From a phage, in the sequence record PZ386980.1: a DNA stretch of 64,000 nt; one strand, written 5' to 3'. The translations under genes and the position numbers were made by a program. The notes under the pieces are model-generated. The model had not been told where the DNA came from and ran no database searches. It saw only the letters and a program-made list of their open reading frames with translations. Positions 2,711 through 62,885 of this stretch are shown piece by piece. Within the stretch, counting starts at the first letter, position 1. The number at the start of each line of letters is the position of its first letter.

Positions 2711-2739
2711 TTTCTAATCTCCGTAATTCTGTATCAGTA

Positions 2740-2805
2740 GTTGATAGTTGTATAATACCACAGTATGCTTTGGTTGTAAACCGGTTTGTGAAAAAAATTT
2801 TTGAA
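2740..2805 (-). promoter_or_regulatory. early promoter cassette (PeSL-type) upstream of motA
   Basis: minus strand reads GTTTAC - 17 nt - GTGGTATTATAC, flanked by A/T-rich UP-like stretch; same cassette recurs at >10 sites. Confidence 0.5.
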
Positions 2806-2834
2806 ATAAAAAAAGGGAGAGCCGAGGCTCTCCC
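2806..2834 (-). terminator. rho-independent terminator downstream of the small ORF 2840-2989
   Basis: GGGAGAGCC/GGCTCTCCC hairpin followed by a U-run on the minus-strand transcript. Confidence 0.55.
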
Positions 2835-2839
2835 TAAAA

Positions 2840-2989
2840 TTACTGCATGACAGTTATCACAGTCATGATAACACGTTGAATTCCGAACGCAAGAAGACCT
2901 CCTGCTACGGCTGGAACAACACCTAAACCCGTCAGTAAAATGCTACCGGATACTAATGCAGCGCTTGTAATACCTATGAATGGACTCAT
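2840..2989 (-). CDS. small hydrophobic membrane peptide (49 aa)
   Basis: own translation MSPFIGITSAALVSGSILLTGLGVVPAVAGG...; ATGA overlap with gene 52 stop. Confidence 0.4.
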   Translation of the reverse strand: MSPFIGITSAALVSGSILLTGLGVVPAVAGGLLAFGIQRVIMTVITVMQ

Positions 2990-4314
2990 TTGATTTCCTC
3001 TAAATCTTTGGTGTATTCAGTAACTACATCAGTAGTTTTCCAATATTCGTTTTCTTCTTTTTTAGCTTTAGCTTCTTCAGCAAGTTTCTTTGCTTCATCG
3101 GAAGTCATATGAAAAATATTCATTCCAACTAGTTTATCAACATAAGAAGAATACATATCGATTTTCGAAAGTTCTTCGGTCAGTTCTTTACGAGTTTTAC
3201 CTTGAACAACAATTTCACCTGAAATTACTTTCTTAATGAAATGTGCCTTGGCAAAGGCTAAACGAAAAGCTGACTCAGTTTCTTTGATTTTGTTATCAAT
3301 TCGTTTTTGGACATAAGTTTTACGAACTTCAACAAAGTCTTTAATTAAATCGACTACGTTATCGTAAACTTGTAGTTTTCCTTTCTCATTAATAACCGTA
3401 ATATTCTGAGAACGACGCTCAATCAACCCGAAGTCTTTCATAATTTTTGCGTGGCGTTCTTCTTCATTATCGCTCAAAGAATATTCTTTACGGAATTTAA
3501 CTTTGAATCCAAAACCGTGCTCACCGCAAGCATCATCCCATGTAATGAAGCCTTTATCTTCAAGTGGGTCTAAAATTTTACTCACATAAGTTTCACGATC
3601 ATACTTATACGGAATCTCAGTGATATGCATTTGAGTTCGTGAAGTAAACTTATATGTTCCACGAATTTCATATTGCCCATCAATTTCAACGACTTCACCA
3701 CGAAATTCTGGGAATTCTACCTTCGGTTTAGTTACTTTCTTTCCTTGAAGAGCTTGTAATACAGCTTTCTTGACAGAAGAAACACTATGAGGAAGAATGT
3801 AAGTTGCATAACCAGTTGCAATACCGGAAACACCATTAAGAAGAACAGTAGGAATAATAGGCAAATAGAAAGCAGGCGGAATGTGTTCTTTATCTTGATG
3901 TACCGGAGCATATTCAGTATCTTTATATACGTTATAGAAATTTTTACTTACACGAGCAAAAATATAACGACTTGCTGCTGCTTTTTGGACGGTACGAGAA
4001 CCAAAGTTTCCTTGACCATCTAACAGAGGAAAGTTATTATTCCAAGTGTTAGCCATCAAAGCACCTGCGTCTTGTGCAGAGTTTTCGCCATGGTGATATC
4101 CAAGGTCCGCTACACCACCTGCAATAGAAGCGAGTTTGTGAAACTTATCTTTATTTCCTCGTGCCAAATCAAGAGCTCGAGCAATAACAAATCGTTGAAC
4201 TGGCTTAAATCCATCAATCATATTTGGAATAGCACGATTTTCAACCGTGTACATAGCATAAGCCAATGCTTCATTATCAATGATACTTTTTAAATCGCGA
4301 TTATTCAGTTGCAT
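2986..4314 (-). CDS. 52: DNA topoisomerase II medium subunit (GyrA-like)
   Basis: 442 aa; N-terminus MQLNNRDLKSIIDNEALAYAMYTVENRAIPNMIDGFKPVQRF is GyrA-like; length equals T4 gp52. Confidence 0.9.
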   Translation of the reverse strand: MQLNNRDLKSIIDNEALAYAMYTVENRAIPNMIDGFKPVQRFVIARALDLARGNKDKFHKLASIAGGVADLGYHHGENSAQDAGALMANTWNNNFPLLDGQGNFGSRTVQKAAASRYIFARVSKNFYNVYKDTEYAPVHQDKEHIPPAFYLPIIPTVLLNGVSGIATGYATYILPHSVSSVKKAVLQALQGKKVTKPKVEFPEFRGEVVEIDGQYEIRGTYKFTSRTQMHITEIPYKYDRETYVSKILDPLEDKGFITWDDACGEHGFGFKVKFRKEYSLSDNEEERHAKIMKDFGLIERRSQNITVINEKGKLQVYDNVVDLIKDFVEVRKTYVQKRIDNKIKETESAFRLAFAKAHFIKKVISGEIVVQGKTRKELTEELSKIDMYSSYVDKLVGMNIFHMTSDEAKKLAEEAKAKKEENEYWKTTDVVTEYTKDLEEIK

Positions 4315-4318
4315 AAAT

Positions 4319-4459
4319 TTACCATACTAGTGAATGTAGTGCCATAATAACATCAGAAATGAAAAGCACGACTTGAATTAATCCGAACATTATTCCGTAA
4401 TATAACGCTATCAATAAAATAACAAGGGTTAATGAATAGCCCAAGATTTTCTTAATCAT
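4319..4459 (-). CDS. small hydrophobic peptide (46 aa)
   Basis: own translation MIKKILGYSLTLVILLIALYYGIMFGLIQ...; in the position of the T4 ac/stp small genes. Confidence 0.35.
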   Translation of the reverse strand: MIKKILGYSLTLVILLIALYYGIMFGLIQVVLFISDVIMALHSLVW

Positions 4460-5734: not shown

Positions 5735-5848
5735 TCACATAAATCCAAAGTAAACGTTTAATACATCAATCATTAAAACGATTGGGAATATACTCAAAAC
5801 TATTAGTATTATAACTACATTCCATATAGCTTTAACAATCTTTTTCAT
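5735..5848 (-). CDS. tiny membrane peptide (37 aa)
   Basis: MKKIVKAIWNVVIILIVLSIFPIVLM...; ATG directly after conserved cassette leader ...CAACTACGGAGGAACAGAAA. Confidence 0.35.
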   Translation of the reverse strand: MKKIVKAIWNVVIILIVLSIFPIVLMIDVLNVYFGFM

Positions 5849-5854
5849 TTTCTG

Positions 5855-5910
5855 TTCCTCCGTAGTTGATAGGGTAATAGTACCACGGAAGAACAGTCTT
5901 GTAAACAACT
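5855..5910 (-). promoter_or_regulatory. early promoter cassette (PeSL-type)
   Basis: GTTTAC -35, GGTACTAT -10 region, inverted repeat CTGTTCCTCC/GGAAGAACAG and conserved leader with GGAGG. Confidence 0.5.
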
Positions 5911-6091
5911 TTTTTAAAAATATTCGTAATAAATGTGAATACCAACTACTACCGCTGAAACTTGCACAACCCACCACGCACAAGCAATAAGTACAGAATT
6001 CAAAATTTTCATAATAACCTCATTACAAAAGTAAATGTTAAACAAATTACTGGAATACTAATTAACCAAACAAAACACCACCATAATGAAC

Positions 6092-6355
6092 TCATAGTTC
6101 AATCTCAGCGATTTTCATTTCATTACTATTAATAGCCTCTTTAAGACTATCTGAAAGAATTACATTCCAGTGGTCATTCATATGACCATTAACTAAGCGT
6201 GTAATTTCTTCAGGAGTTGAAAAATAAGGCTGATCAGACTCCCAATGCGATAATCCTAAGCGAGTATAAATCATGCCTTCATCATCACTAGAATATTCAA
6301 CTGACACAAACTCATCAGTTATTTTATGCTTAGCATAATAAAATTTAAATTTCAT
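6092..6355 (-). CDS. hypothetical protein (87 aa from MKFKFYY)
   Basis: track ORF trimmed; the first 33 track codons are read-through of the upstream promoter cassette. Confidence 0.5.
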   Translation of the reverse strand: MKFKFYYAKHKITDEFVSVEYSSDDEGMIYTRLGLSHWESDQPYFSTPEEITRLVNGHMNDHWNVILSDSLKEAINSNEMKIAEIEL

Positions 6356-6364
6356 TTTACTCTC

Positions 6365-6440
6365 CAAATCCGTATCAGTTGATAGTTGTATAGTACCACG
6401 GTCCTTGTGGTATGTAAACTGTTTTGTGAAATTTTTTAAA
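6365..6440 (-). promoter_or_regulatory. early promoter cassette (PeSL-type)
   Basis: minus strand GTTTACATACCACAAGGACCGTGGTACTATACAACTATCAACTGATACGG. Confidence 0.5.
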
Positions 6441-6993
6441 TGGAAAGATACCATCCGTTGTAGTTGCTTTTTCTTACAACCTTACGAAGGTCTTCTCTGT
6501 CACCGATGAACTTCGGAGTGTACTGGATGACACCTGGATGAATTTCTTTAGTGTTGAATATAATTATACAGTCAGCGACTTGATGATTTAGAATGGGCCC
6601 TAGATTTATTCCAGAACCATATGGATACTCTCCGCTGCATCCTGTTGTTACCGAAATCCAACGTGAGTCAGTTTGATGTGTCTTAACTTCTACACGAAGC
6701 CCGCAGTATTTTGGATGCGCCAATACATCCCATGCATATGTGTACGGATCATCGACATCTTCTTGGCCTTTATTGACATATCCGCTTAGCCAATCTGCCA
6801 CAAAAAACTCTGCGTACACAGCAATACGACATCTTTCGATAACTTCTGCCTTATCCTGATTTGGGTTCTGTTTTAAAGAGTATCTTGCAGTATCAGCAAT
6901 TTTGACCTTCATTTCATTGGTTAAATCGCTGTTCGATAGAGTAAATGTCGGAATCTGAAATAGTCTCTGTAACCCAGGATTCGTTTTCTGCAT
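6436..6993 (-). CDS. denB: probable DenB endonuclease IV
   Basis: 185 aa, same length and position (adjacent to rIIB) as T4 denB; sequence itself not recalled. Confidence 0.55.
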   Translation of the reverse strand: MQKTNPGLQRLFQIPTFTLSNSDLTNEMKVKIADTARYSLKQNPNQDKAEVIERCRIAVYAEFFVADWLSGYVNKGQEDVDDPYTYAWDVLAHPKYCGLRVEVKTHQTDSRWISVTTGCSGEYPYGSGINLGPILNHQVADCIIIFNTKEIHPGVIQYTPKFIGDREDLRKVVRKSNYNGWYLSI

Positions 6994-10437: not shown

Positions 10438-10641
10438 TTAATTCATATTACGCTTAATGACTTCAGCAACTTCTAGTAGTTCATCTTTAGTTGCGGTGTC
10501 GGATTGAATTTTATCTCTAATATCTTTAAAGCGGTTTTTAAATTCTTCGGCTTCTCCCATATCGAAAAAGCGTTGAATGATTCTATATTCTCGATGAACT
10601 GCTTTATCAAAAAGTTCTAAATTTACTCTATATGATTTCAT
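10438..10641 (-). CDS. hypothetical protein upstream of rIIA (rIIA.1 position, 67 aa)
   Basis: ORF track; ATG at 10639-10641. Confidence 0.5.
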
Positions 10642-10654
10642 TTCAATATCCTCA

Positions 10655-10700
10655 TTTGCCCAATTAATTATACCACATCCTTGTGGTAAAGTAAACTACT
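10655..10700 (-). promoter_or_regulatory. early promoter for the rIIA.1-rIIA-rIIB unit
   Basis: minus strand GTTTAC - 17 nt - GTGGTATAATTA; the ~30-bp core recurs at 57689-57720. Confidence 0.5.
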
Positions 10701-12513
10701 GGCTCATCCATTCTTTACGAAGGTCAGCATTATCTCCCATGAGCATTTCAAAAAGCTCTTTCCAGTTCTCAGGAAGTTTAACAACATCATATACTGGATT
10801 TTGAATCATCTCACGATATTCAGATTTTTCCAAAGAGCCAAGTCCCTTAATATAACGGATACTATGTTTAGGTAGAGCATCTTTAGCACTCTCATATTCA
10901 GCGACTGTATAAAACCATTCTTGTTTTTTACCGACCTGAGCGATGATTACAGGAGTTTTGACAAAGCGAATTCGTCCTTGCTCAAACAGTTCTGGCCAAT
11001 TACTAAAAAATCCAAGAAGAGAAGGATAAATGCTTCCTAGACCATCATGGTCAGCATCAGTCATAATAGCAATATTGCGATAATTCAAGTTTTCAGCTTT
11101 TTCACCAAGAACTAGACCAGTGATTGCGCAAATATCAAATAGTTCTTTGTTTTTAAGCATATCGGCATATGACATACCCCAGCTATTAAGAACTTTACCG
11201 CGCAATGGATAACCACCATGAAGTTCTTTATCGCGAACATCAATAAGATATCCGATAGCTGAATCACCCTCAGTCAAGAACAATGTAGTGTCAGCATCTT
11301 TACCGCAAAGATTCGCTTTAATATGTTTATGAACCTTAGCTTTAGAAGCCTTTTTAGCTGCTTTAGTTTCTGCTGCTTTTTCTGCCGCCAATTTACGAGC
11401 CAAAGCAGCTTCAATAATCGGCATTAAAATTGCTTCATTATTTAGAATAGCGCGTGAAATCTTTTTAGCATCAAGCTGAATATGACTACGAATTTCGCCA
11501 AATGGAGAAGTCAAACGCTCTTTAGTTTGAGAATCAAATCGCATGTTTTTCATATCACGAACAAACATAACGATAGTCAAACATTCTTTGACACGTGCTT
11601 TAGTTACATCAATTTTGAATTTACGTTTGATTTGTGGAATAAGGTCTTCACAAATATCATCCATAACGCAGTCAATGTGATGGCCACCATTCTTAGTGTG
11701 AATGTTATTCACGTAAGTTAATTGACGAAATCCATCCGGTGAACGACCAACCGCAATAGAACAATTTTCTTGTTCTTGAACGATAGCATGTTCATCATAC
11801 TGTCGTGCATATTTCTTAAAATTGCCCTGAACCTTTTTACCATTAAAGGTAAATTGAATATCAGGATAAACGACAGCAAGTGTCTGGAGACGATCCAGTG
11901 TAATGTCAAGATAAACCTGGGACAGCTCATTAGTTTCAAATGACATAAAATCAGGAATGAAAGTAACACGAGTTCCTTTCCATTTTCCAGGAATAGTTTC
12001 CCAGGATTTATTTTCCATACCATTTGAACAACGAACTACAATATTATTTTGACCATCGCCAGTTTCACCAACAAACATCACAGAAAAAATGTTTGTCAAA
12101 CTAGAACCAACGCCATTCATACCACCGGTGACGCGTTCTTTATCATCACCGAAGTTACCACCTGCTTTTGGAATAGTCCAGGCAGCAACAGGACCAGGAA
12201 TTTCTTCACCAGTAGGTGTTTTAACCATCGCTTGTGGAATACCACGACCGTTATCTTCAACTGTTACTTGATTGTTTTTGATAGTAACATTAATTTTATT
12301 TGCGAATTTAAACTTAGTACGAATACCTTCATCTACTGAGTTATCGATAATTTCATCAATAAGCTTAACAAGACCAGGTACATACTGAACACTTTCCCAT
12401 TTACCAAACAGAAAGCGCTCATGCATTTCATTAGCAGAAGAGCCAATATACATGCCGCTACGCTTTTTGATATGTTCAATATCGCTCAGAATTTTAATTT
12501 CATTCTTAATCAT
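10696..12513 (-). CDS. 39: DNA topoisomerase II large subunit (GyrB-like), uninterrupted
   Basis: 605 aa from ATG at 12511-12513 (track start is GTG one codon upstream); GyrB-like N-terminus; ...DADHDGLGSIYPSLLGFF... is contiguous. Confidence 0.9.
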   Translation of the reverse strand: MIKNEIKILSDIEHIKKRSGMYIGSSANEMHERFLFGKWESVQYVPGLVKLIDEIIDNSVDEGIRTKFKFANKINVTIKNNQVTVEDNGRGIPQAMVKTPTGEEIPGPVAAWTIPKAGGNFGDDKERVTGGMNGVGSSLTNIFSVMFVGETGDGQNNIVVRCSNGMENKSWETIPGKWKGTRVTFIPDFMSFETNELSQVYLDITLDRLQTLAVVYPDIQFTFNGKKVQGNFKKYARQYDEHAIVQEQENCSIAVGRSPDGFRQLTYVNNIHTKNGGHHIDCVMDDICEDLIPQIKRKFKIDVTKARVKECLTIVMFVRDMKNMRFDSQTKERLTSPFGEIRSHIQLDAKKISRAILNNEAILMPIIEAALARKLAAEKAAETKAAKKASKAKVHKHIKANLCGKDADTTLFLTEGDSAIGYLIDVRDKELHGGYPLRGKVLNSWGMSYADMLKNKELFDICAITGLVLGEKAENLNYRNIAIMTDADHDGLGSIYPSLLGFFSNWPELFEQGRIRFVKTPVIIAQVGKKQEWFYTVAEYESAKDALPKHSIRYIKGLGSLEKSEYREMIQNPVYDVVKLPENWKELFEMLMGDNADLRKEWMSQ

Positions 12514-14058: not shown

Positions 14059-14328
14059 TTAATTGAACAGTGGAGCGATGCGTTTCAGAAGAGTAGCAGC
14101 ACCTTTAGCGAATTTTACATCATGAAAAACAGTTTCTTCTTCCGTTACAACACGAACTTTAATGTTTTCACAATCCCAATTTTTACGAACAATCTTCAAA
14201 AGCTGCAGTAAATCTTTACATTCAGCAATATCGATAACACATCCACGAGAATCTTCCATTATCGCACGATAACCGTAAGCCATACCATAATCGTTGAAAG
14301 ATTGCTCGATGATAATTAAGTTTTCCAT
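14059..14328 (-). CDS. hypothetical protein (89 aa from ATG; track start is TTG)
   Basis: ORF track; ATG at 14326-14328. Confidence 0.5.
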   Translation of the reverse strand: MENLIIIEQSFNDYGMAYGYRAIMEDSRGCVIDIAECKDLLQLLKIVRKNWDCENIKVRVVTEEETVFHDVKFAKGAATLLKRIAPLFN

Positions 14329-14341
14329 TTTATTCTCCAAG

Positions 14342-14400
14342 TTATTTTCTGTATCAGTAGTTGATATTGATATAGTACCATAATCAACTACTGATGTATA
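14342..14400 (-). promoter_or_regulatory. promoter-early-stem-loop element
   Basis: inverted repeat ATCAGTAGTTGAT ... ATCAACTACTGAT enclosing GGTACTATAT. Confidence 0.45.
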
Positions 14401-14435
14401 TAGTTTTATGAAAAAATTTTAAACTTTATGCAAAT

Positions 14436-14864: not shown

Positions 14865-15338
14865 TTAAGCTTTACGAGGAGAAGCATAACGAGTGATTTC
14901 AGATTCTTCAACAACCCGGAAGTCACCTAAGAATACGATATTGTAGAGCTTTTCACCATCTTCAACCCATTGGTCTGTGATGAAGCCACACATCCTATCA
15001 GTTTTACTTGGACCAGCGAAATCATCAATATAATCGAATTCTTCATCAGTTACAAATTCAACGCCTTTACACAACGCCCATTTAAATTGTGCATTAGACT
15101 CAGTGGATTCAACTTCTTCAACAGAAGTAAAATGAGAGCTAACACGAGTTTCCAGAAATTTAGGACTTACGTAAGCGTACTGAGTTTCAGTTTTTCCAGA
15201 ACTAGGAATGATTCGAACTTTAACTTCTTTAACACGACCAGTACCATTAGTACGAAGTCCTACCACTTCAACTAGACGACCTGCAGCTTTAGAACGAGAT
15301 GCAGACGATACACGCTTAATTTCACCGATAGTAATCAT
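14865..15338 (-). CDS. paralog family member B (157 aa), unknown function
   Basis: C-terminal GFITDQWVEDGEKLYNIVFLGDF; N-terminal SRSKAAGRLVEV. Confidence 0.55.
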   Translation of the reverse strand: MITIGEIKRVSSASRSKAAGRLVEVVGLRTNGTGRVKEVKVRIIPSSGKTETQYAYVSPKFLETRVSSHFTSVEEVESTESNAQFKWALCKGVEFVTDEEFDYIDDFAGPSKTDRMCGFITDQWVEDGEKLYNIVFLGDFRVVEESEITRYASPRKA

Positions 15339-15410
15339 AATTTTTCTCTCTTTGTTGTTAAGATTTATTCTCCATGAGAGCCATTATAACAGGCTCTCTA
15401 TAAAGTAAAC

Positions 15411-15920
15411 TTAATTAAGGATATTAATTACTGCACTGCGTGGAACTACACTAAAATCACCTGCATGAACAACGTTCAGAAGTTCAACACCATCTTCAAG
15501 CCACTGGTCAGTTACCCAACCACTTACTGGACCAGCAAATGGTCGACGAATTGAAACAGCTTTACACAACAAGTCAGTAGGCTCGATAGGCTTAACCAGA
15601 GTACCGTACATACAAGCAATGTCCATATCAAAGTGGAGACCAGTGCTAACAGGTGCTTCTTCAATCAACAATTCGAAATCTTGTTCTGTAATATAGACCG
15701 TAGATATTGTACCATATAAGTTTTTAATTCTTAAGAATGATACAGATGAAGCTGTGGCAGTTGATGCAAAAATAGGACCAGCATTTACAATAGTGAAACC
15801 TTTACCTTGGGTAACACCAATAAGCTCGCAAAACTTACTATAAGAACCATTATTTGCTTCAAACCAGTTTACTTGCTTTTCGTCTTTCAGGATGTAAGTA
15901 GCTGTAGTACTGATATTCAT
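15411..15920 (-). CDS. paralog family member C (169 aa), unknown function
   Basis: C-terminal GWVTDQWLEDGVELLNVVHAGDF; N-terminus unrelated to A/B. Confidence 0.55.
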   Translation of the reverse strand: MNISTTATYILKDEKQVNWFEANNGSYSKFCELIGVTQGKGFTIVNAGPIFASTATASSVSFLRIKNLYGTISTVYITEQDFELLIEEAPVSTGLHFDMDIACMYGTLVKPIEPTDLLCKAVSIRRPFAGPVSGWVTDQWLEDGVELLNVVHAGDFSVVPRSAVINILN

Positions 15921-15932
15921 GATGTTTTCCCC

Positions 15933-16436
15933 TTAATCTAAGGTAATAAAGCCTTTTAATTCGGCATGTGACTTGCGGAACATTACTTGATGACCGCCAA
16001 TGATAACTTGGTCATCAGGTACTTCGTATACAGCGAGATAAAATCCTTTAGAAGCTAATTCTTCGCGCTCTTCTCGTGTGAACCATCTCATCATATCATA
16101 TTCGCTAGCGAAAGCAAAATGATAAAGAGCTATAAACCATCCTGGAATATAGTGATCTACGCCTACATATTCTTCTTTCTCAAAATTAGTATTAATTGCT
16201 ATATTAGCATTTTTAACTAATAATTTGTCTTCATGCGGCACAGGAATTCTTTTATTATCATTACTATGATGCATAAAATTGGGTCTGTCATAACCTACGC
16301 GTAATAACCACTCTTCGCTCCATGAATCTATTATACTCCTGTATGGCGTTATTTGAACACAAAGATCTCGACGTATTGTTATAGCATCTTCATAATTAAG
16401 AATACTAAATGATGATTCAACACGATAAATTTTCAT
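15933..16436 (-). CDS. hypothetical protein (167 aa from MKIYRV)
   Basis: track start is TTG; ATG at 16434-16436 preceded by GAGGA. Confidence 0.5.
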   Translation of the reverse strand: MKIYRVESSFSILNYEDAITIRRDLCVQITPYRSIIDSWSEEWLLRVGYDRPNFMHHSNDNKRIPVPHEDKLLVKNANIAINTNFEKEEYVGVDHYIPGWFIALYHFAFASEYDMMRWFTREEREELASKGFYLAVYEVPDDQVIIGGHQVMFRKSHAELKGFITLD

Positions 16437-16454
16437 TTTATTATCCTCAGTAGC

Positions 16455-16495
16455 TATGGTGTTATAATACCACAACTAACCGAGGAAGTAAATAA
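16455..16495 (-). promoter_or_regulatory. candidate early promoter
   Basis: minus strand ATTTAC ... GTGGTATTATAAC. Confidence 0.4.
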
Positions 16496-16499
16496 CTTT

Positions 16500-17183
16500 T
16501 TATCGTTTTGTTGGAAGAGATAGAGGATCGCATTCTTCCTCTGATGGAGCGTCTTCAAGACCCATAGCATAGCGCAAAGCATACTTCATCATCAGGATGT
16601 CTTTCGCACAGTCATGAATAGAATCATGCGCAACGAATCCATCTAAAGTTCCTTTTGGAAGAGGACACGTGGTCATATCACGAACAAGGAGAAGTGCTTC
16701 AATTCTGGTACGAATATCACGCTGATTCCAGAATTTACATGGTTCTAACTTAAATGTGTCAAGCTCATTCTCGGAAACGCCGTTAAGACGTTGAATATCG
16801 CGAATGAGATCGACTAAAATTGGAAAATCAAACGACATTCCACGGCACCAGCCTTGAGATTTCCAAGGATCGATATTATGCGCATTGATGTAATCATTAA
16901 ATTTTGCAATACCATCGATAGTGCTTACATCTTCATCTGATGGCGCAATATTTTTTCGAGCTTCAGGAGATTGATTCTTCCACCATTCGATAGTGCTTTT
17001 AGTAAAAAGACGATGTCCTTTTTGGCTTTTTAAATCAAATTTGATTTTAATGCCACGTGAAACTAATTCATCAAATGTTTCAACGACTTCTGGATTAGGG
17101 TCAAAAGCAATTACAGCCAAATCAATAACAGCTGCTTTTTCACCGCTTCCCATTGTTTCAAAATCTATAATAAAATCAAACAT
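16500..17183 (-). CDS. dexA: DexA 3'-5' exonuclease A
   Basis: 227 aa, MFDFIIDFETMGSGEKAAVIDLAVIAF...; matches T4 DexA from memory. Confidence 0.9.
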   Translation of the reverse strand: MFDFIIDFETMGSGEKAAVIDLAVIAFDPNPEVVETFDELVSRGIKIKFDLKSQKGHRLFTKSTIEWWKNQSPEARKNIAPSDEDVSTIDGIAKFNDYINAHNIDPWKSQGWCRGMSFDFPILVDLIRDIQRLNGVSENELDTFKLEPCKFWNQRDIRTRIEALLLVRDMTTCPLPKGTLDGFVAHDSIHDCAKDILMMKYALRYAMGLEDAPSEEECDPLSLPTKR

Positions 17184-19545: not shown

Positions 19546-20292
19546 TTATCCTCGGATAAGTTTAAAAATTGAACAATTTAGCGGGTATCCTCTTTTCAGT
19601 TTAAGTTTATCAATAAAAGACAAGTTTTGATACCGCTCTACACCTTGAATAATTTTATCACACATATCATATTGCATTTCTGCTTCTGACAACTTTTTCA
19701 CAATTTTCCAATCCGAGCCTTTAAGAAGAACGTTCAGTTTAACAACTTCAGCGCCTTCTGCTATGCGAGAACCATCAATACGAGCTTTAAGTGCTATAAT
19801 CCTTAGCTTAATGTCAGAGGTCTGTTTTGATTTAGAAAGCTGAGAAATGTGTTCAATTCGATTTTCACGCTTTTTCTGTATAGCTTTAATTTGATTATAA
19901 GTCTTTTTGATTTTAGCCCATTTCTTTTCATCTAAATTTAGTTTATGAACTTTTTTCGCAGATGAACGACCAATTCGCAAAGCAAATAAATCCCGTTTTT
20001 CAATCAACTCTTCTAAAGTATAATCAGAACGAAATGTATTATACTTTTTCTTTACTGCAATAACATTCCCTTTAATGTATCCAATGTTATTATCAAAACG
20101 TTCTAATGATAATTTCTCTCCTTCAATACGATTATCAAAAGGTTCTCCTGAATAGGCACAAACTTTTTGATCTAAAATGTTCTTAATGTAATTGAAGTCT
20201 AAGTTAAAATCTTTAGAACGTCTTTTTGCAGATGCCTGAGTGTGCTCTAAACGACGTTTAATTTTACGAATTTGATTATTAGACAGTTTCAT
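19546..20292 (-). CDS. Srd-like protein (248 aa), by position and size
   Basis: lies between dda.1 and modA as srd does in T4; basic K/R-rich; sequence identity not verified. Confidence 0.4.
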   Translation of the reverse strand: MKLSNNQIRKIKRRLEHTQASAKRRSKDFNLDFNYIKNILDQKVCAYSGEPFDNRIEGEKLSLERFDNNIGYIKGNVIAVKKKYNTFRSDYTLEELIEKRDLFALRIGRSSAKKVHKLNLDEKKWAKIKKTYNQIKAIQKKRENRIEHISQLSKSKQTSDIKLRIIALKARIDGSRIAEGAEVVKLNVLLKGSDWKIVKKLSEAEMQYDMCDKIIQGVERYQNLSFIDKLKLKRGYPLNCSIFKLIRG

Positions 20293-20414
20293 ATTTTTCT
20301 CACATCTTACGGACGATTGACTACTATACTATAACATTTTTACCTTAGCTTGTAAACAACTTTATGTAAAAATGCTTTAAAAATTTCATGGTATAATGAA
20401 TCTAAGTCCTTCCA

Positions 20415-21637: not shown

Positions 21638-21704
21638 GATAGCCTCCGTATACTTCAGAAGCTATCATATCATCGTTAGAAAGGAAAGTAAACAACTTTT
21701 TGAA

Positions 21705-21887
21705 TTATTTTGCCCAGGGAGCCCAAGGCGGAGGGTCAAGATGGTATGAAGCTAGTTCTTCTAGAAGAGCATCTGGGGCTTCAATTCCATAATTCTGTAA
21801 TACTATACGGTACTCTTTCTTATAATCACTAGAATCATTCTGGATATTCGTAGAATGATTATCTTCTAACATCTCAAATAAATCCAT
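21705..21887 (-). CDS. hypothetical protein (60 aa)
   Basis: ORF track. Confidence 0.4.
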   Translation of the reverse strand: MDLFEMLEDNHSTNIQNDSSDYKKEYRIVLQNYGIEAPDALLEELASYHLDPPPWAPWAK

Positions 21888-23757: not shown

Positions 23758-23821
23758 AGTGTTCTCCTCTATAAGATATTTTTATTATACCACACTCATT
23801 TTGACATGTAAACCATAAAAT

Positions 23822-27451: not shown

Positions 27452-27459
27452 GATAATCT

Positions 27460-48955: not shown

Positions 48956-49087
48956 TTAAATTTCCCAATTGCCATTTTCATCAATAAATTTAATCCAGTC
49001 ATTTACTGACCACTTAGTTGTATCGCCTTTTGGAGTAACATTTAAAGTGTATAACCCCTGCTTAAAAAGCATTCGTTTAATATTCAT
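48956..49087 (-). CDS. small hypothetical protein (~43 aa from MNIKRM)
   Basis: track ORF trimmed to remove overlap with the next gene. Confidence 0.3.
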   Translation of the reverse strand: MNIKRMLFKQGLYTLNVTPKGDTTKWSVNDWIKFIDENGNWEI

Positions 49088-49094
49088 ATTTTCC

Positions 49095-49388
49095 TCAGCT
49101 GTAACGATAACATTCGTTTGATTTGCGCTTAGCAACTCGTTGAGATGTATTATAATCAAAATCATCGTCAATGTAAACTGATTTTTTCAACTTTCTTACT
49201 TCACCACGCAGTTGACGATTCAATTCATTCTTAACCTCTGAATCAACACCTCGCATACGTCGCCATTTATCTGAACGAAAAATGTTTTCAACCATATCTT
49301 TATGACTTACCCCATCAGGAGCTTTACGCTTTCCGAAATAGTCATAATCACGAACTTTCAAGTCTTTACGACGATACGTTTTACCCAT
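49095..49388 (-). CDS. basic hypothetical protein (~97 aa from MGKTYRR)
   Basis: track ORF trimmed; K/R-rich. Confidence 0.4.
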   Translation of the reverse strand: MGKTYRRKDLKVRDYDYFGKRKAPDGVSHKDMVENIFRSDKWRRMRGVDSEVKNELNRQLRGEVRKLKKSVYIDDDFDYNTSQRVAKRKSNECYRYS

Positions 49389-49563
49389 GGAGTTTAATTT
49401 CCTTAGCAACTGAACTAAATACAGCACGATCACAAATCATGTGTTTATGTAACTTAAGTATAAGATAATAAACATCATAACCATTTACGTAAGTAACACG
49501 AACAACATTACCATTAATAAAATAATATTGTCCCTTTTTAATTTCTTTATCAATCATAACCAT
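49381..49563 (-). CDS. hypothetical protein (60 aa)
   Basis: ORF track; ATG at 49561-49563. Confidence 0.45.
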   Translation of the reverse strand: MVMIDKEIKKGQYYFINGNVVRVTYVNGYDVYYLILKLHKHMICDRAVFSSVAKEIKLHG

Positions 49564-49584
49564 ATCAATTCCTCAAAGGCAATT

Positions 49585-49625
49585 CATGTGTTAATAATAC
49601 CACAGTTTGAGCTTGTTGTAAACAA
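49585..49625 (-). promoter_or_regulatory. early promoter
   Basis: minus strand GTTTAC - 17 nt - GTGGTATTATTAAC. Confidence 0.45.
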
Positions 49626-49721
49626 CTTTGTGAAAATTATTTTAGGGAATGATAAGAAGGGAACGATAGCTTAGAATGGTAATATACAGAATGTGAGAAA
49701 GAAAGGCCCAGAGGGCCCGTC

Positions 49722-56659: not shown

Positions 56660-57661
56660 TTACTTAATTAACTGTAAAGCTTGTTCCAGACGATCAAGAC
56701 GATTAACAGATTCTTCCCAAATCCTTTTAGCCTGCTCATATTCTTTCTGTGCTTTATTAGAAATTTCTAGAACTTCTTTATAAGCTTTTTCTAGTGCAAT
56801 AACTTCTGGACGAATTTCTATCGGTTCAGGTGAATCATCAAGATTATCCATTAGTTCCTCAAGGGTAGTTTCTTCTTTAGGAGTATTCACAATTTCATCA
56901 CATTTTTGTTGATAAATTTCTTTATCAGTAGGTGAGTACGCGCACTTTACTTCACGAAGACTAATTACAATTTTATATCCTTCCCAACCACCCATATTTT
57001 TGAAAGGATATGTATGAATACTTTTTACAGTTTCCATACAATCCAAAGCCGTCTCTAATTGATGAGTTATAGTGCTAGCAATTGAGAAAAATTTATTAAT
57101 ATTCTTTTGGTTAGCTTCTGGTGTAAAAAATTCGTAATTCACAAAAATAGCTACTTTATTTTTATCAAGCTCATATTCTTTTACGATAATCATATCAGAA
57201 GCCAAAGGATGAATTTGACGATAATCGCCATAACATAATTTAGAAGCTGATTTTAGAATTTGTCCTTTAAAAAGTCTGAAATTGCTAATCCAACGACGAG
57301 TAAAAATATTCTTAGGGTCTTCTTTGATATTAAGATGATAAGAATTAACATCACCGAACCAATTGTATCCTATTACACCTTTAGTTCGTTTAATTTCTTT
57401 CCCAAAATTACCAAGAATATCCCGATTAACCAAATATGAAAGAAGACGAGACCCTTTAAAGATTATCTTAATATCATCTTTATCTACACGGCTAGAAATT
57501 TCACGAACTTCATGAATAAATTTACTGGAAGAAACAATACTTGCATCAATACTGCTGAGCCATTGATTGATAATAGAAAGAACAGCGTTCTGACTAGACA
57601 TGGGTTTAACTTTATCATCAATAACACTATTGAATGATTTGATATATTCGTTACGAGTCAT
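56660..57661 (-). CDS. coiled-coil-tailed family member 2 (333 aa from MTRNEYIKSF)
   Basis: track ORF over-extended into the promoter; ATG at 57659-57661 with GAGGAG SD. Confidence 0.55.
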   Translation of the reverse strand: MTRNEYIKSFNSVIDDKVKPMSSQNAVLSIINQWLSSIDASIVSSSKFIHEVREISSRVDKDDIKIIFKGSRLLSYLVNRDILGNFGKEIKRTKGVIGYNWFGDVNSYHLNIKEDPKNIFTRRWISNFRLFKGQILKSASKLCYGDYRQIHPLASDMIIVKEYELDKNKVAIFVNYEFFTPEANQKNINKFFSIASTITHQLETALDCMETVKSIHTYPFKNMGGWEGYKIVISLREVKCAYSPTDKEIYQQKCDEIVNTPKEETTLEELMDNLDDSPEPIEIRPEVIALEKAYKEVLEISNKAQKEYEQAKRIWEESVNRLDRLEQALQLIK

Positions 57662-57688
57662 AATAATCTCCTCAGTAGAAAGTAAGAA

Positions 57689-57720
57689 CATTATACCACA
57701 TCCTTGTGGTAAAGTAAACT
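57689..57720 (-). promoter_or_regulatory. early promoter, near-identical copy of the rIIA.1 promoter
   Basis: CATTATACCACATCCTTGTGGTAAAGTAAACT matches 10665-10697; CCACA/TGTGG stem between -35 and -10. Confidence 0.5.
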
Positions 57721-58744
57721 AGTTCAGTGCATTTAATGCATTGTTCAGTTTAGAACGTTGCTTCGTGAGATTTTTGACTTTTTCTTGTGCTTTTTCTAGC
57801 ATCTTTTCAGCTTCTAACACTTCATTGGTCGCTTTAACGAGTTCATCATCTACTGCCTTGATAGACTTCTCAATCGCATCCGCGTGCCATTTTTCAACAG
57901 GTTTAAGACTCGGATTTTCAATAGGAAGAAAATTCACTTTATTGAATTTCCATGCATCCTTATTACCTGAACTATACATCCAAAATTTAGGATCGTTTGA
58001 TGAGTAATTGGATAAATTTAAATTTAAGTTATCTTGCACTTCCTGCTTCTTCTCTTGCGTGACTTCGTCCTTTCTCAAAAAATCATATTTAAATGAAACA
58101 ATCATATCAAGTTCATATGTTGTTGTGTCTAATTTAAATCGTTCGAAATGCTGTGAAATCTTAGACTGAACAGCGGCAACAACATCCATATACTTAAATG
58201 CTTCTGTCAACTGTGATTTAAGGCATTCACAAATTGAAAGAGAATTTTTTGTATTAGGTTTAAAGCTAATTCGTGCAGTTCTATTATTTTCTTTTAATGG
58301 TCTTACTTCCATCTGAAGAGTATAACCATCAAATTTCAAGTTCTTTAAGTTAATATCAGAACCTTTTAATCGACTAGCAGTTGATAAAATTTGCTTTAAT
58401 TGTCTACGGAACAGAGCAATAAATCTCCATTCAATACGATAATGATTTGGATTGAAAAATCCAGATGATAAATCGACCTTACTCTGACCAACACCTTGAA
58501 CAAATAGAGGATTTTTATAATCAATAGTTTTACAGAAATCGGTGAGCTGCTCACGAGCAGTCATTTGTGTAATATATCCCGCTTTACTAAAATGACGTAA
58601 CCATTCACTGCTATTCATATACTTAAAGTGAATGGAACTATTAACTCTATCAGGGTCTAAATTATTTTGGCACAAAAATGTCATAACATCACGAGTATAG
58701 CTGGCATTACGAACCATATCTTCAATTTGAGAACGAGTTTTCAT
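57719..58744 (-). CDS. coiled-coil-tailed family member 3 (341 aa)
   Basis: N-terminus MKTRSQIEDMV; coiled-coil C-terminus. Confidence 0.55.
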   Translation of the reverse strand: MKTRSQIEDMVRNASYTRDVMTFLCQNNLDPDRVNSSIHFKYMNSSEWLRHFSKAGYITQMTAREQLTDFCKTIDYKNPLFVQGVGQSKVDLSSGFFNPNHYRIEWRFIALFRRQLKQILSTASRLKGSDINLKNLKFDGYTLQMEVRPLKENNRTARISFKPNTKNSLSICECLKSQLTEAFKYMDVVAAVQSKISQHFERFKLDTTTYELDMIVSFKYDFLRKDEVTQEKKQEVQDNLNLNLSNYSSNDPKFWMYSSGNKDAWKFNKVNFLPIENPSLKPVEKWHADAIEKSIKAVDDELVKATNEVLEAEKMLEKAQEKVKNLTKQRSKLNNALNALN

Positions 58745-60115: not shown

Positions 60116-60642
60116 TATGCGAGTACCGTCTTTAACCGTTCTTCAAACTTCCGAAGAGTATTCTGGCGTTCAGCTCTTTGCTTTTTGTAAGTTTCAATAC
60201 GCTCTGAAATGAGATTGTATCGTTCATTTACTGTTTCTTTCATAAAATCAGGAATTTCACGAGAAGCTTTAATCTCGTCAAATTTATCAATAACAGCTTG
60301 CTCTTCAGCAATTAAGTTATCATACATCAAAATATCTTTCTTGATGAACTCAATATCTTCTTGAGTTACACGAGATAACTTAGATGCTTTATCCTTTTTG
60401 TACTGTTCGTTAGTATCACGAGACCAGTGTAATGTACGATTTTTATTCGTATTCTTGTAAATTTCTACAATACCAATCTCATCGATAATAACGATCCAAT
60501 TCCAACGGGATTTGTAAATTTGTCCTCCATCAACAGTGATTTCACCACCGATTGAGACATCATTAAAGAACTTGCTTTGAGCTTCAGATTTAAATTTACC
60601 ATCATTGTAGTTTACCAAGTTGAAAATATCTTTAGCATTCAT
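60115..60642 (-). CDS. coiled-coil-tailed protein 5 (175 aa)
   Basis: coiled-coil C-terminus; ATG after the conserved cassette leader. Confidence 0.55.
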   Translation of the reverse strand: MNAKDIFNLVNYNDGKFKSEAQSKFFNDVSIGGEITVDGGQIYKSRWNWIVIIDEIGIVEIYKNTNKNRTLHWSRDTNEQYKKDKASKLSRVTQEDIEFIKKDILMYDNLIAEEQAVIDKFDEIKASREIPDFMKETVNERYNLISERIETYKKQRAERQNTLRKFEERLKTVLA

Positions 60643-60644
60643 TT

Positions 60645-60702
60645 TCTGTTCCTCCGTAGTTGATAGTTGTATAGTATCACAGAGGAACAGTCTTGTAAAC
60701 CA
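60645..60702 (-). promoter_or_regulatory. early promoter cassette (PeSL-type)
   Basis: GTTTAC -35, GATACTATAC -10, 9-bp inverted repeat CTGTTCCTC/GAGGAACAG enclosing the -10. Confidence 0.5.
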
Positions 60703-61017
60703 CTAAAAGAAACTTCTTTCACAATTTTTTCCACTGAACCACGCGCTCACTGCTTTCTTAGTCTCAGGAGCAGTGTTATCCATAAACCATTCAAAGGCAG
60801 CCTTTTTATGATTCTGGAGGGCTTCTCGGGCTTTAATCTGCTCACGGTCTATTAACACTAACATATGAGCCTTTCTTGTCACCAGGGGCTTCTTATGATT
60901 TTTTGAATATTCCCAATCATTTGTCCATCGCATTGTTGTTGCGAACTGAAATACTGCTTCTTTAATTTTAGTTTCATAAATTTCACGAGCCTTTGAGTAT
61001 AACATCATTACCTCCAT
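60703..61017 (-). CDS. hypothetical protein (104 aa)
   Basis: ORF track. Confidence 0.5.
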   Translation of the reverse strand: MEVMMLYSKAREIYETKIKEAVFQFATTMRWTNDWEYSKNHKKPLVTRKAHMLVLIDREQIKAREALQNHKKAAFEWFMDNTAPETKKAVSAWFSGKNCERSFF

Positions 61018-61087
61018 TTACCAGTTTAATTCTAGTCATCTTTTTGATGGCAGTCCATATAATCTATTTCTGAACTGCCTTTTTGTC

Positions 61088-61807
61088 TTAGGATTCTTCT
61101 AAATGTCTTTTCTGAAAAGTTGATACCATACTACGATACGGTTCATTTGGATATCCGTGTTTTATAGCTTCCTTTGTAAATTTTCTCCATCCATATTTAG
61201 TTTCTTTCCAAAGCTCGAATAATTCATCTTCATATTGCCATATAGTTAAATGAGAACGCTTTGCAGCTTTAATTCCATTAATATGCTTTTCTTTTACTAC
61301 AGGATTGCTTAGTTTCTTTTTAATAATATTACTAACTTTTCTAACAAAAACTGGGTCCTTATATCGTTGCGAAGTTTTTATTGAAGTGTTTAATTTAGCT
61401 TCCGGCGTGGATGTGACCTCTTTCATCTTTTTCTTCATATGCTGTATATGATTAGGATTTTTCCATAAATTTATAGAATGCTTTTTGCATTTTATCCTAG
61501 TTTCATCTGCAACCTTTCCTCCTTCACCCCCGTATGACAGGTTAACACAGTTTTTTCCATATTTCAATTTACCTGCCATGATATATAATATTTCAGCTTG
61601 TACCATTTTATCATAATTATCAAAAACTTCTAAAACCGTTTTTGATAATATGTGGTCATTTGACACTTTTACACGTTCTATATAATTTCCACTACCAACA
61701 TACGAATCATTGATGTTATTAGTTATATGTCGACCATAATAGTATTTCTTAATACCTGTCTTTAAATTTAATATTTCAGTTTTATAGATAGTAAAATATT
61801 TTTTCAT
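61088..61807 (-). CDS. GIY-YIG homing endonuclease (Seg-like, 239 aa)
   Basis: N-terminal FTIYKTEILNLKTGIKKYYYGRH (GIY-x11-YIG-like); K-rich repeats in the C-terminal half. Confidence 0.55.
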   Translation of the reverse strand: MKKYFTIYKTEILNLKTGIKKYYYGRHITNNINDSYVGSGNYIERVKVSNDHILSKTVLEVFDNYDKMVQAEILYIMAGKLKYGKNCVNLSYGGEGGKVADETRIKCKKHSINLWKNPNHIQHMKKKMKEVTSTPEAKLNTSIKTSQRYKDPVFVRKVSNIIKKKLSNPVVKEKHINGIKAAKRSHLTIWQYEDELFELWKETKYGWRKFTKEAIKHGYPNEPYRSMVSTFQKRHLEES

Positions 61808-62772
61808 TTTAATAATACCGTTTCAGCGATTTCTTCCCAACCGTTTTTGTCGGTCATAATAAAGTCAGCAAGATAAAGTGCAGTACGCAGTGAAACATTA
61901 CGTAAACGATTAACATTGACTTTCATCCATGATAATGCTTTATAAGTTTCTTCATCAGAAAGACCGCGCTTTTGCATCATGTCGGTTGAAAGAATAACAT
62001 CTTCAACCCTGACCATAATTTCTTCATTAGTGTGAACACCCAAATCCAAATAAACTGAGCGGGACACTAATGCTTGTAAATGTGGAGCAAGTTTAGTACC
62101 ACGGTCTAATTCGCGGTCAATGTCAACGTTTGTGATAAAAACAATCGTTCCTTTAAATTCAAACTCACGCTCAATGCCTTTTTCTTCTAAGTAAGAAGAT
62201 GCGGTGCTCCAGCAGACTTTACGGGTCTCTCCAGTGTCCAGAGCAGCTTTCAGAAGATTAAGAATGTCCATATCAGAGAAAACATCCACATCATCAATCA
62301 AAAGGACAGAATTCTCTTCACGATTATTCCAAAGCTGTTCATAAAGACCAATACCAGAGATTTTACCATTAATGCTTTTATACTCAATGTATCCAATATC
62401 ATTTGCTTTATTTAAAGCTTTATCTAAAGAATACGTTTTACCAATACCTGCTGCTCCCGAGATAATTAATGAACGAATGTTTCCGTTAATAATACCATTC
62501 GTCATCATTCCCATAACATTAAATCTTTTATTAATGCGGGTTTTCATATCTTCATACGATTCTTTAACTTCTTCAACTTTTACACCATCATATGAAATGT
62601 CTGATTTGTAAACCCAAACACCGCGACGCTTACCGTCAATTTCAACAAAAACTTTACCATCTCCTTGTGCATCTACCGGAGCATTATCTGGGAACCATTC
62701 GCCTAAGAGCTCAAAAGTTCCAGAGATTTCTTTACCGAAGTAGATACCCTTATTGATAGTTACAGTTTTCAT
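61804..62772 (-). CDS. AAA+/P-loop ATPase (322 aa from MKTVTINKG)
   Basis: Walker A GAAGIGKT, Walker B VLLIDDVD; first 22 track codons are promoter read-through. Confidence 0.65.
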   Translation of the reverse strand: MKTVTINKGIYFGKEISGTFELLGEWFPDNAPVDAQGDGKVFVEIDGKRRGVWVYKSDISYDGVKVEEVKESYEDMKTRINKRFNVMGMMTNGIINGNIRSLIISGAAGIGKTYSLDKALNKANDIGYIEYKSINGKISGIGLYEQLWNNREENSVLLIDDVDVFSDMDILNLLKAALDTGETRKVCWSTASSYLEEKGIEREFEFKGTIVFITNVDIDRELDRGTKLAPHLQALVSRSVYLDLGVHTNEEIMVRVEDVILSTDMMQKRGLSDEETYKALSWMKVNVNRLRNVSLRTALYLADFIMTDKNGWEEIAETVLLK

Positions 62773-62774
62773 TT

Positions 62775-62840
62775 TATTCTCCAAATCTGTATCAGTTGAT
62801 AGTTGTATAGTACCATAAAGCTTTATGCTTGTAAACAACT
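62775..62840 (-). promoter_or_regulatory. early promoter cassette (PeSL-type)
   Basis: minus strand GTTTACAAGCATAAAGCTTTATGGTACTATACAACTATCAACTGATACAG. Confidence 0.5.
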
Positions 62841-62857
62841 TTGTGAAAAATTTTTGA

Positions 62858-62885
62858 AATAAAAAAGGGAGCCCGAAGGCTCCCT
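62858..62885 (-). terminator. rho-independent terminator downstream of the 337-aa gene
   Basis: GGGAGCCUUCGGGCUCCC hairpin plus U-run; same terminator-UP-promoter arrangement as 2740-2834. Confidence 0.5.

Follow-up and report, generated by a model that had tools for sequence, protein, structure and literature searches.

Repeated early-promoter cassettes in a T4-like phage and predicted hairpins that enclose some of their ribosome-binding sites

We analyzed a 64,000-nucleotide stretch of phage DNA (record PZ386980.1; hereafter the window), whose gene content and alignment to T4 show it to be that half of a Tequatrovirus genome which carries the early and middle genes. It contains 19 T4-type early promoters, all on the minus strand, that were detected by a pattern scan followed by a filter for a downstream Shine-Dalgarno sequence (SD), ATG and open reading frame (ORF); the same procedure returned zero promoters on the plus strand. 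We are confident that the repeats built on them are the immediate-early promoters of this T4-like phage, each forming with its 5' leader a cassette of 90-130 bp of the type published as promoter-early-stem-loops (PeSLs). We computed sequence anatomy, T4 orthology, repeat statistics, predicted structures with their controls and hairpin conservation, and we infer start sites and effects on translation.

The sequence-only reading of this DNA had listed ten near-identical blocks. All ten are genuine T4-type early promoters on the minus strand, lying just 5' of a start codon and holding GTTTAC (ATATAC at one of them), a 17-nt spacer, TAYWAT usually preceded by TG, a short GGAG leader and ATG. Near-identity applies to seven, with the -35 G at 2781, 5906, 6419, 14401, 33739, 60700 and 62836, which share the leader ...CTATCAACT..., a near-identical stretch that begins ACAACTATCAACT. 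Two others (10667-10698 and 57690-57721) form a second subfamily with an identical 32-mer, a GGTATAAT -10 and different leaders, and the site at 27509 is a more divergent copy according to repeat search and alignment. Nine further promoters, beyond the ten listed, have the -35 G at 316, 15410, 16493, 20357, 21693, 23813, 28012, 49178 and 49623 and serve asiA, motB, motB.2, srd, modB, mrh.2, dmd, 55.4 and 55.6. The genes behind the listed sites had been described as mostly small ORFans, which fits ORF83, ORF87 and ORF89, all without a Pfam family, whereas motA, sp, nrdC.4, nrdC.8 and nrdC.10 are conserved genes.

In shuffled sequence, GTTTAC-N15-19-TACTATAC is expected 0.00 times and GTTTAC-N15-19-TAYWATAC 0.03 times; the window holds four and six occurrences, respectively. 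The leader 16-mer TATACAACTATCAACT occurs exactly five times, always on the minus strand. A repeat search returned an 8-copy family of 74 nt with 62-74% identity to the reference copy, as well as subfamilies of 88 nt with 63-84% identity, and pairs of copies have exact words of up to 29 nt in common. As anticipated, the copies can be aligned with each other: 11 of them align from the block AAAAATTTTTCACAAAGTTG through the promoter and into the leader, with the A/T block AAAAATTTTTCACAAA kept in six of the 11. The A/T content of the 30 nt upstream of the promoters is 0.53-0.83. A generic sigma-70 scan showed no enrichment over shuffles (66 found, 80 expected); only the T4-specific pattern is informative. 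Copies in other phages were located by a scan with the leader 16-mer; a loose 14-base pattern, GTTTAC-N17-TACTATAC, was discarded after it returned only single chance matches on unrelated viral contigs.

The cassettes thus show the design already known from T4 early promoters and PeSLs, here in a further relative of T4. Each combines an A/T upstream (UP) block, GTTTAC, a 16-17-nt spacer, a TAYWAT -10 that is usually TG-extended, a leader, a GGAG SD and ATG, and host sigma-70 RNA polymerase would recognize the UP block, the GTTTAC -35, the spacer and the TAYWAT -10. T4 early promoters consist of UP, -35, TGn and -10 elements plus additional consensus regions (Hinton 2010, PMC2988021), with GTTTAC at -36..-31 (Nolan et al. 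2006, PMC1524935). The promoters of the window resemble them in GTTTAC, an A-rich UP element, TGn with the -10 and extra conserved positions. In T4 itself these cassettes occupy the same loci with almost identical sequences, and the orthologous loci include asiA, motA, rIIA.1, motB, motB.2, modB, mrh.2, sp, dmd and nrdC.x. Nothing essential differs, except that ORF83, ORF87 and ORF89 are extra here and absent or remnant in T4. A differential RNA-seq (dRNA-seq) dataset exists for T4 (bioRxiv 10.1101/2024.04.04.588121).

The PeSL concept was first defined in RB49/phi1 (Arbiol 2010, PMC2839356) and then extended to T4/PST (Comeau 2014, PMC4122927), where the element is TTTACW-N17-TAYWAT, preceded by an A/T region, accompanied by an AGNA-loop-TCNT stem-loop and ending 3' in an SD plus start codon. 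The promoter consensus, the A/T region and the SD plus start codon of the downstream gene at the cassette 3' end are all found here, in many dispersed copies conserved over about 100 bp, and the stem-loop is found in part of the copies; the PeSL interpretation of the sequence-only reading is thus borne out. The finding is already known, because such cassettes have been published as PeSLs for T4/PST and RB49/phi1. A number of copies also resemble PeSLs in lying in variable regions beside small ORFs of no known function, and crossovers fall between the -10 and ATG. Measured promoter and terminator activity and mini-circle formation by recombination between cassettes are further marks of PeSLs. 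The 2010 paper places the stem-loop between -35 and -10, over either box, upstream or just past -10 (PMC2839356); stem-loops in the spacer and over the -10 occur in the window too. The cassettes of the window differ in that an adjoining upstream terminator is present in only three of 19 copies and indels relative to T4 are not enriched at cassettes. In addition, many hairpins here use the SD as the 3' arm, without a U-tract, a layout unmentioned in the PeSL papers; the words translation and ribosome are never used in the 2010 one (PMC2839356). As cited in both PeSL papers (PMC2839356, PMC4122927), the T-even internal-protein loci also have early-promoter repeats with A/T-rich stem-loops that flank variable small genes (Repoila et al. 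1994); as far as these citations tell, they concern loci other than the cassettes described here.

The conserved leader is largely accounted for by a predicted start-site consensus and a RegB/S1 target. Spacing would place the transcription start at the A of ATCAAC, the 7th nt past the -10, and gives predicted starts at 2746, 5871, 6384, 14366, 16458, 21658, 33704, 60665 and 62801; the 5' part of the conserved leader, ACAACT-ATCAACTAC, likewise puts an A at this position. ATCAAC follows the -10 in 7 of 18 promoters of the window, 2 of 11 in RB69 and 6 of 13 in Dhakavirus IME540, compared with 0.004 expected per site. Because of this recurrence in all three genomes, we consider it part of a subfamily-wide start-site consensus.

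In T4 the optimum of the RegB/S1 nuclease target, GGAGRAYARAA, is GGAGAAUAAAA (Durand et al. 2006, PMC1702504; PMC3014915), and the cassettes share with this target an SD GGAG followed by A-rich sequence. Only two perfect GGAGRAYARAA sites exist on the minus strand of the window, both GGAGAATAAAA and both in cassette leaders (nrdC.10, 62772-62782; ORF89, 14328-14338), and five of the seven minus-strand matches with at most one mismatch lie in such leaders, including that of motA, a classical RegB substrate. The T4 optimum itself is exact in two leaders and has one mismatch in three, motA among them. Cassette leaders thus contain two perfect sites and three with one mismatch, and folding predicts no structure in the transcripts that the cassettes themselves initiate. 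The A-rich consensus is not kept in the hairpin-type leaders (GGAGGAACAG, GGAGGCTATC). RegB cleaves the motA, motB, motB.2 and nrdC.8 RNAs; in T4 infection the nrdC.8 site is cut moderately, and the motB.2 site is also cut (PMC1702504). The short leader would supply the GGAG SD, which several copies have within the 11-nt RegB/S1 target, so that early mRNAs would be translatable at once and then inactivated.

About one third of the promoters have a spacer or -10 region that could pair with the leader or SD of the same cassette. We folded the RNA from -35 to ATG+9, which corresponds to the RNA made by a polymerase arriving from upstream, and computed z scores against 200 dinucleotide shuffles; gene starts were scanned separately with fixed 70-nt windows. 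The z score was -6.0 at motB.2 (-35 G at 16493), -5.3 at nrdC.8 (60700), -5.0 at ndd.4 (5906) and at modB (21693), -4.6 at ORF89 (14401), -2.5 at motB (15410) and -1.75 at ORF83 (33739; -2.2 was also computed), while the dmd promoter (28012) reached -3.8 in the fixed-window scan. The SD lies inside the 3' arm at 5906, 16493, 21693, 33739 and 60700, and the modB arm also takes in the AUG. Overall, 6-8 of the 19 copies bear a significant embedded hairpin, four a short spacer hairpin and three an adjoining terminator; in the remaining copies folding found no structure above that of shuffled sequence. The spacer had been thought to form often a short stem of its own, and it does so at 6419, 10696, 57719 and 62836, whereas the strong stems pair spacer with leader instead. 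Since the 5' arm precedes the predicted start site, only RNA initiated at a more distant upstream promoter could form the hairpin. Transcripts from the cassettes' own predicted starts lack the 5' arm and fold at ~0 kcal/mol.

Strong structure is associated with early promoters: among the minus-strand gene starts of the window, z < -3 was found for 4 of 14 with an early promoter and for 3 of 96 without (P = 0.005, Fisher test). The latter three include the dmd promoter, missed by the first pattern, and the known SD-sequestering hairpin upstream of gene 49 (about 53,416-53,474, z -3.1), whose recovery was an unplanned positive control. Over 42 predicted early promoters from the window, RB69 and IME540, duplexes between pre-start segment and leader average -10.7 kcal/mol for cognate and -8.3 kcal/mol for non-cognate pairs (P = 5e-5, permutation test). 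The energies are bimodal, with about 12 of the 42 promoters at or below -15 kcal/mol.

The predicted pairing persists across genera, although the paired sequences change. At the motB.2 promoter each of four genera has a distinct SD-containing stem, with 5' and 3' arms TCCTCGGTTAGTTGTGGT and ACCATAGCTACTGAGGA in Tequatrovirus (T4, PST and the phage of the window), TTCTCCTCTGGTT and AACCAGAGGAGAA in Mosigvirus (RB69, whose sequence is given, and 348Ecol098PP), TTCTCCTCATG and CATGAGGAGAA in Dhakavirus (IME540 and IMG/VR contigs) and TGATGACCTC and GGAGGTCATCA in Kanagawavirus (CIP9). MAFFT with RNAalifold on the motB.2 promoters of the four genera recovered only five pairs; because the stems are in different registers, lineages were compared one by one instead of counting covarying columns. 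The modB stem pairs GATGAT...ATGATAGC with GCTATCAT.GATTATT in T4 and CATGTTATGATAGGC with GGTCTATCATGACATG in RB69, where changes in the first codons are matched in the spacer, and the nrdC.8 stem pairs CGTTCCTCTGT with ACGGAGGAACA in T4 and TCTCCAGTAG with CTACTGGAGG in IME540. RB49 hairpins are built differently, with the -10 looped out, closure just past the -10, a following T-run in one case and the SD rarely included, which makes the SD-pairing layout characteristic of the T-even group. We conclude that the predicted SD-sequestering hairpin around early promoters is a statistically solid sequence feature, with an architecture conserved across four genera.

This feature may act as an early-only gate, a proposal that we put forward tentatively on the basis of prediction and comparison. 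About one third of Tevenvirinae early promoters would sit in a hairpin that hides the SD or AUG. On read-through RNA the hairpin would conceal both the ribosome-binding site and the RegB site, leaving that RNA silent and RegB-protected, while the cassette's own transcript, without the 5' arm, would stay open and be translated. Translation of the gated genes would thereby be tied to the promoter-proximal, early-only transcript, and these genes would be silent on the read-through and middle-mode RNA still crossing them. A related arrangement exists at T4 e, soc, 49 and I-TevI, where the SD is buried in RNA started upstream and a late promoter inside the hairpin yields an open RNA (PMC3014915). 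As predicted for the cassettes, the SD or AUG is paired in upstream transcripts and the proximal promoter starts between the arms. However, the inner promoter of those genes is late (gp55, TATAAATA) and gives late-only expression, whereas the sigma-70 early promoters here would give early-only expression.

The SD-sequestering early-promoter hairpin may be the one new element of the cassettes. The 2010 T4 review (PMC3014915) gives no early-promoter example of hairpin gating, and we did not find the hairpin in the PeSL papers or the 2010 T4 reviews, although the older T4 literature may mention it. Reviews state that the shut-off of early expression in T4 is not fully explained. If the gate is real, it would provide a simple cis-acting reason why some early proteins, such as the toxic ADP-ribosyltransferase ModB, cease to be made despite continued transcription across their genes, and it would explain why RegB can attack a given GGAG in one transcript but not in another.

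Several observations weigh against the gate. The start sites on which it depends come from spacing alone. The loops are long and measure 15-21 nt in the CTGTTC family. Pairing is weak in the copy at 33739, and copies in other phages (L129, L152, L155) join the CTGTTCTTCC spacer to non-pairing leaders, so pairing between spacer and leader is not always maintained; strict co-inheritance of spacer-SD pairing was rejected on the evidence of these CTGTTCTTCC copies. In vivo cutting of the motB.2 and nrdC.8 sites by RegB fits an open proximal transcript and is no demonstration of gating. Finally, attenuation of transcription has to be reckoned with because an RB49 stem-loop showed terminator-like activity.

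This last point leads to the strongest alternative, in which the embedded stem-loops are terminators or attenuators for polymerase arriving from upstream and exert no control on translation. We regard it as unlikely, if less so than the other alternatives. It is the PeSL papers' own reading: the RB49 stem-loop cut lacZ expression like a strong terminator (PMC2839356), and in RB49 a T-run comes after the hairpin at 3202, which has the -10 inside it. Terminators are indeed present next to some cassettes of the window. The motA and nrdC.10 copies share, as had been claimed, an upstream terminator (2814-2835 and 62866-62885) and an A/T block, and a third adjoining terminator lies at 23826-23847. 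All three are canonical intrinsic terminators of the UUCG-loop, AGGGAG...CTCCCT type that would insulate their cassettes from upstream transcription. They adjoin only three of the 19 promoters; two further terminators lie 80-86 nt upstream of theirs. The embedded hairpins of the window, on the other hand, are followed by A-rich sequence (..GGAGGAACAGAAAATG, ..GAGGATAATAAAATG) with no U-tract, and their 3' arm is the SD or AUG itself, the pairing of the SD being the part that persists across genera. The terminator function was shown for the RB49 stem-loop, from which the T-even SD-pairing layout differs.

The cassettes had also been described as mobile, and for this role the support is modest. 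Alignment to T4 is interrupted by 23 indels, of which three end at a cassette leader. This is about the share of gene junctions that bear a cassette, with no enrichment of indels at cassettes in this comparison, and shuffling there explains few of the differences. Most of the 23 consist of homing-endonuclease genes and the nrdD intron, which only T4 has, of a missing dam gene, or of additional ORFs at cassette-free junctions; the T4-only elements comprise mobA with the gene 60 split, segF, segA with b-gt, mobB, mobC and I-TevII. No cassette was found in the replication-gene block at 34-47 kb (gene 43 to gene 47).

ORF83, ORF87 and ORF89 all sit directly behind cassettes. At the indels at 6350 and 14321, the window has intact ORF87 and ORF89 directly behind the cassette, while in T4 the promoter, leader and ATG remain and a few codons run straight into what is left of the ORF, its 3' end. 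From these junctions we read both indels as internal deletions in T4 at short A-rich repeats and not as exchange between cassettes. The T4 remnants (AF158101, about 166,997-167,030 upstream of ndd.6 and 6,483-6,560 upstream of cef) are annotated as intergenic and hold the ATG, 2-3 codons and the 3' end, as in the mini-ORF MKIAEIEL*; the T4 remnant of ORF87 has 8 codons.

The third indel, at the gene 43-imm.1 junction, is an exchange. Here the promoter is common to T4 and the window up to ATCAACTAC, which puts the crossover in the shared leader; past this point T4 has TGATACGGATTTGGAGAATGAAATG and imm.1, and the window has GGAGGAACCGAAAATG, ORF83 and a new SD for imm.1. The same imm.1-locus promoter fronts still other leaders in other phages (L129, L152, L155, L183). 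ORF83 was found in only 38 phage records. Tequatroviruses such as T2, RB51 and their relatives have it at similar coordinates, near 25 kb in records that begin where T4 does. The homologue in Dhakavirus IME08 sits between rI.-1 and mobD.3 and is again directly preceded by a terminator and an early promoter, whose leader is of the CCTATCAAC kind. Exchange at cassettes, as these alignments indicate, happens and accounts for a small share of the differences from T4.

Could the copies be alike only through independent selection for strong promoters, with no common descent, conversion or mobility? Selection on the UP, -35, TGn and -10 elements of T4 early promoters is strong (PMC2988021), and three genera have nCYTATCAAC past the -10, which may make this part of the leader a functional consensus. 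Identity nevertheless spans positions without known polymerase contact, including spacers, 27-29-nt exact leader words and the identical 32-mer. The likeness is mosaic as well: the motA copy goes with nrdC.10 in its upstream part but with ORF89 in its leader, and the ndd.4 copy shares its spacer with ORF83 and its leader with nrdC.8. Since exact words of up to 29 nt are shared in this mosaic way, the copies are better seen as sites of occasional recombination or gene replacement, and one replacement junction, at the imm.1 locus, falls inside the shared leader. Independent selection as the sole cause is improbable. Less probable still is that the inverted repeats work at the DNA level, whether by forming cruciforms or by being targets of recombination or of nucleases. 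Such repeats are symmetrical in DNA, and RB49/phi1 PeSL crossovers map in or near stem-loops (PMC2839356), but the loops are long for cruciform extrusion, and in 16 of 17 cases the sense RNA exceeds the antisense strand in stability (mean 6.1 kcal/mol) because of G-U pairs, which become A-C mismatches on the other strand, an asymmetry that indicates RNA rather than DNA.

The individual promoters, all on the minus strand, are described here in order of position. The asiA promoter (253..345) is without the shared leader. The motA cassette (2708..2835) comprises a terminator hairpin AGGGAGAGC-CTCG-GCTCTCCCT plus T-run, the A/T UP block TTTTTTTCACAAA, GTTTAC at 2776-2781, a 17-nt spacer, a TG-extended TATTAT, the leader ACAACTATCAACTACTGATACAGAA, a RegB-type SD GGAGATTAGAA and the ATG at 2710. 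In the ndd.4 cassette (5846..5935; ATG at 5848) the 5' hairpin arm lies in the spacer (5882-5896, CTGTTCTTCCGTGGT) and the 3' arm, with the SD inside, at 5852-5866 (ACTACGGAGGAACAG). The next cassette (6353..6450) drives ORF87 (6092-6355) through a leader ...CAACTGATACGGATTTGGAGAGTAAAATG and has the spacer hairpin TACCAC-AAGGACC-GTGGTA. The rIIA.1 promoter (10639..10720), of the second subfamily, contains the 32-mer TAGTTTACTTTACCACAAGGATGTGGTATAAT, repeated at 57690-57721, the spacer hairpin CCACA-AGGA-TGTGG and a leader unlike that of the main family.

The cassette at 14326..14435, with the variant -35 ATATAC, drives ORF89 (14059-14328), and its hairpin (5' arm 14376-14395, 3' arm 14353-14372) encloses the -10 and leaves the SD free. 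This site (14401) was rejected as a cef promoter, as the ORF89 that it drives sits upstream of cef. At the motB homologue (15336..15440) the hairpin GAGAGCC / GGCTCTC has the -10 as its loop (TGTTATAAT), and the leader holds a RegB-like site GGAGAATAAAT. The arms of motB.2 (16434..16520) are at 16469-16486, in the spacer, and 16444-16460, with the SD inside. A predicted srd promoter (20290..20385) has a TATAGT -10 and no significant hairpin. In the modB promoter (21629..21725), the 5' arm (21656-21674, GATGATATGATAGCTTCTG) corresponds to the -10 plus the next 8 nt, and the 3' arm (21629-21648, CGGAGGCTATCATGATTATT) to the SD, AUG and codons 2-4.

The mrh.2 promoter (23755..23847) adjoins the upstream terminator AGGAATCC-TTCG-GGATTCCT plus T-run. 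The divergent sp copy (27449..27540) has the leader ATAAACATAAACTACTGAGGAG, and the dmd promoter (27951..28040), with a TATAGT -10, has a hairpin that encloses this box (5' arm 27991-28005, 3' arm 27970-27984). Between gene 43 and imm.1, the cassette of ORF83 (33679..33770; ORF at 33430-33681, not in T4) has a weaker spacer/SD hairpin, in which 33715-33727 pairs with 33687-33699. A predicted 55.4 promoter (49085..49210) has a long leader and no significant hairpin, and the UP block and promoter of 55.6 (49561..49655) place it in the 74-nt family, although its leader differs. The nrdC.4 promoter (57659..57745) is the second member of the second subfamily and shares its 32-mer with 10667-10698. 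The nrdC.8 cassette (60640..60730) has its arms at 60679-60690 (CTGTTCCTCTGT) and 60646-60657 (ACGGAGGAACAG, SD inside). Last, the nrdC.10 cassette (62770..62885) consists of the terminator AGGGAGCC-TTCG-GGCTCCCT plus T-run, a UP block, GTTTAC, the palindromic spacer CATAAAGCTTTATG, TACTAT, the shared leader and the ATG at 62772.

ORF callers run through the cassettes and thereby give false N-terminal extensions, namely in two ORFs here, probably in T4 ndd.4 and in IME08 orf92. The two in the window (6092-6454 and 61804-62838) share the N-terminus GTIQLSTDTDLE, which is translated promoter and leader, as had been suspected. T4 ndd.4 (AF158101 166,636-166,764) is annotated from an ATG in the leader (ACTATGGAGG) that is ACG in the phage of the window; the ATG behind the SD comes five codons later. 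In IME08, orf92 (L215 1462-1722) is annotated to start just past the -10 hexamer of its promoter. Both annotated starts appear, from their position, to lie inside a cassette.

Concerning the window as a whole, a megablast search with the first 20 kb matched 969 phage records, mostly Escherichia and Shigella T4-like phages at ~95-97% identity, which carry the rIIA-topoisomerase-dda gene set. In a local blastn against AF158101, the window is collinear with T4 160,896-168,903 followed by 1-56,449, with 94-98% identity over most aligned blocks and 69-87% in the cef-motB region. The conserved genes are on the minus strand (asiA ... motA ... rIIB, rIIA, 39, dda, modA/B, 61, 41, uvsX, 43, 45, 46, 47, 55, nrdD, nrdC.x), and the plus strand holds a few inserted ORFs. 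Relative to T4, the window is without mobA, segF, dam, mobB, mobC and the nrdD intron with I-TevII (at 10696-12516, 24151-24182, 24740-24761, 46310-46335, 51112-51132 and 52408-52411). Because gene 39 is unsplit and encodes 606 aa, the gene 60 bypass is absent.

Three ORFs of 208-239 aa that are not in T4, at 40210-40923 (+), 42851-43477 (-) and 61088-61807 (-), may be homing endonucleases; the first, located between 45.2 and 46, resembles HNH proteins weakly (E = 0.007, a match that falls short of the Pfam cut-off). In place of T4 segA and b-gt there is a 282-aa ORF (31045-31893) with a match to the TET-associated glycosyltransferase family (PF20691, E = 1e-10). Three tandem motB-like paralogues (14436-14855, 14865-15338 and 15411-15920) occupy the place of T4 motB and motB.1; they form a repeat family (D4) that is 60-71% identical over 93 nt, in a stretch 69-79% identical to T4. 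An extra 118-aa ORF missing from T4 (26166-26522) is flanked by a 49-nt direct repeat (26162-26210 and 26520-26568, 94% identical) that includes the start codon and first codons. With no promoter cassette involved, it looks like an insertion or duplication by recombination between gene starts. No Rfam family was found within the window. A second repeat family consists of GC-rich hairpins AAGGGCCGAAGCCCTT with a UUCG loop on the minus strand (7057-7084, 7286-7313, 12559-12588, 36604-36633, 38808-38835, 45102-45129 and 48741-48768), which are probably intrinsic terminators at gene ends.

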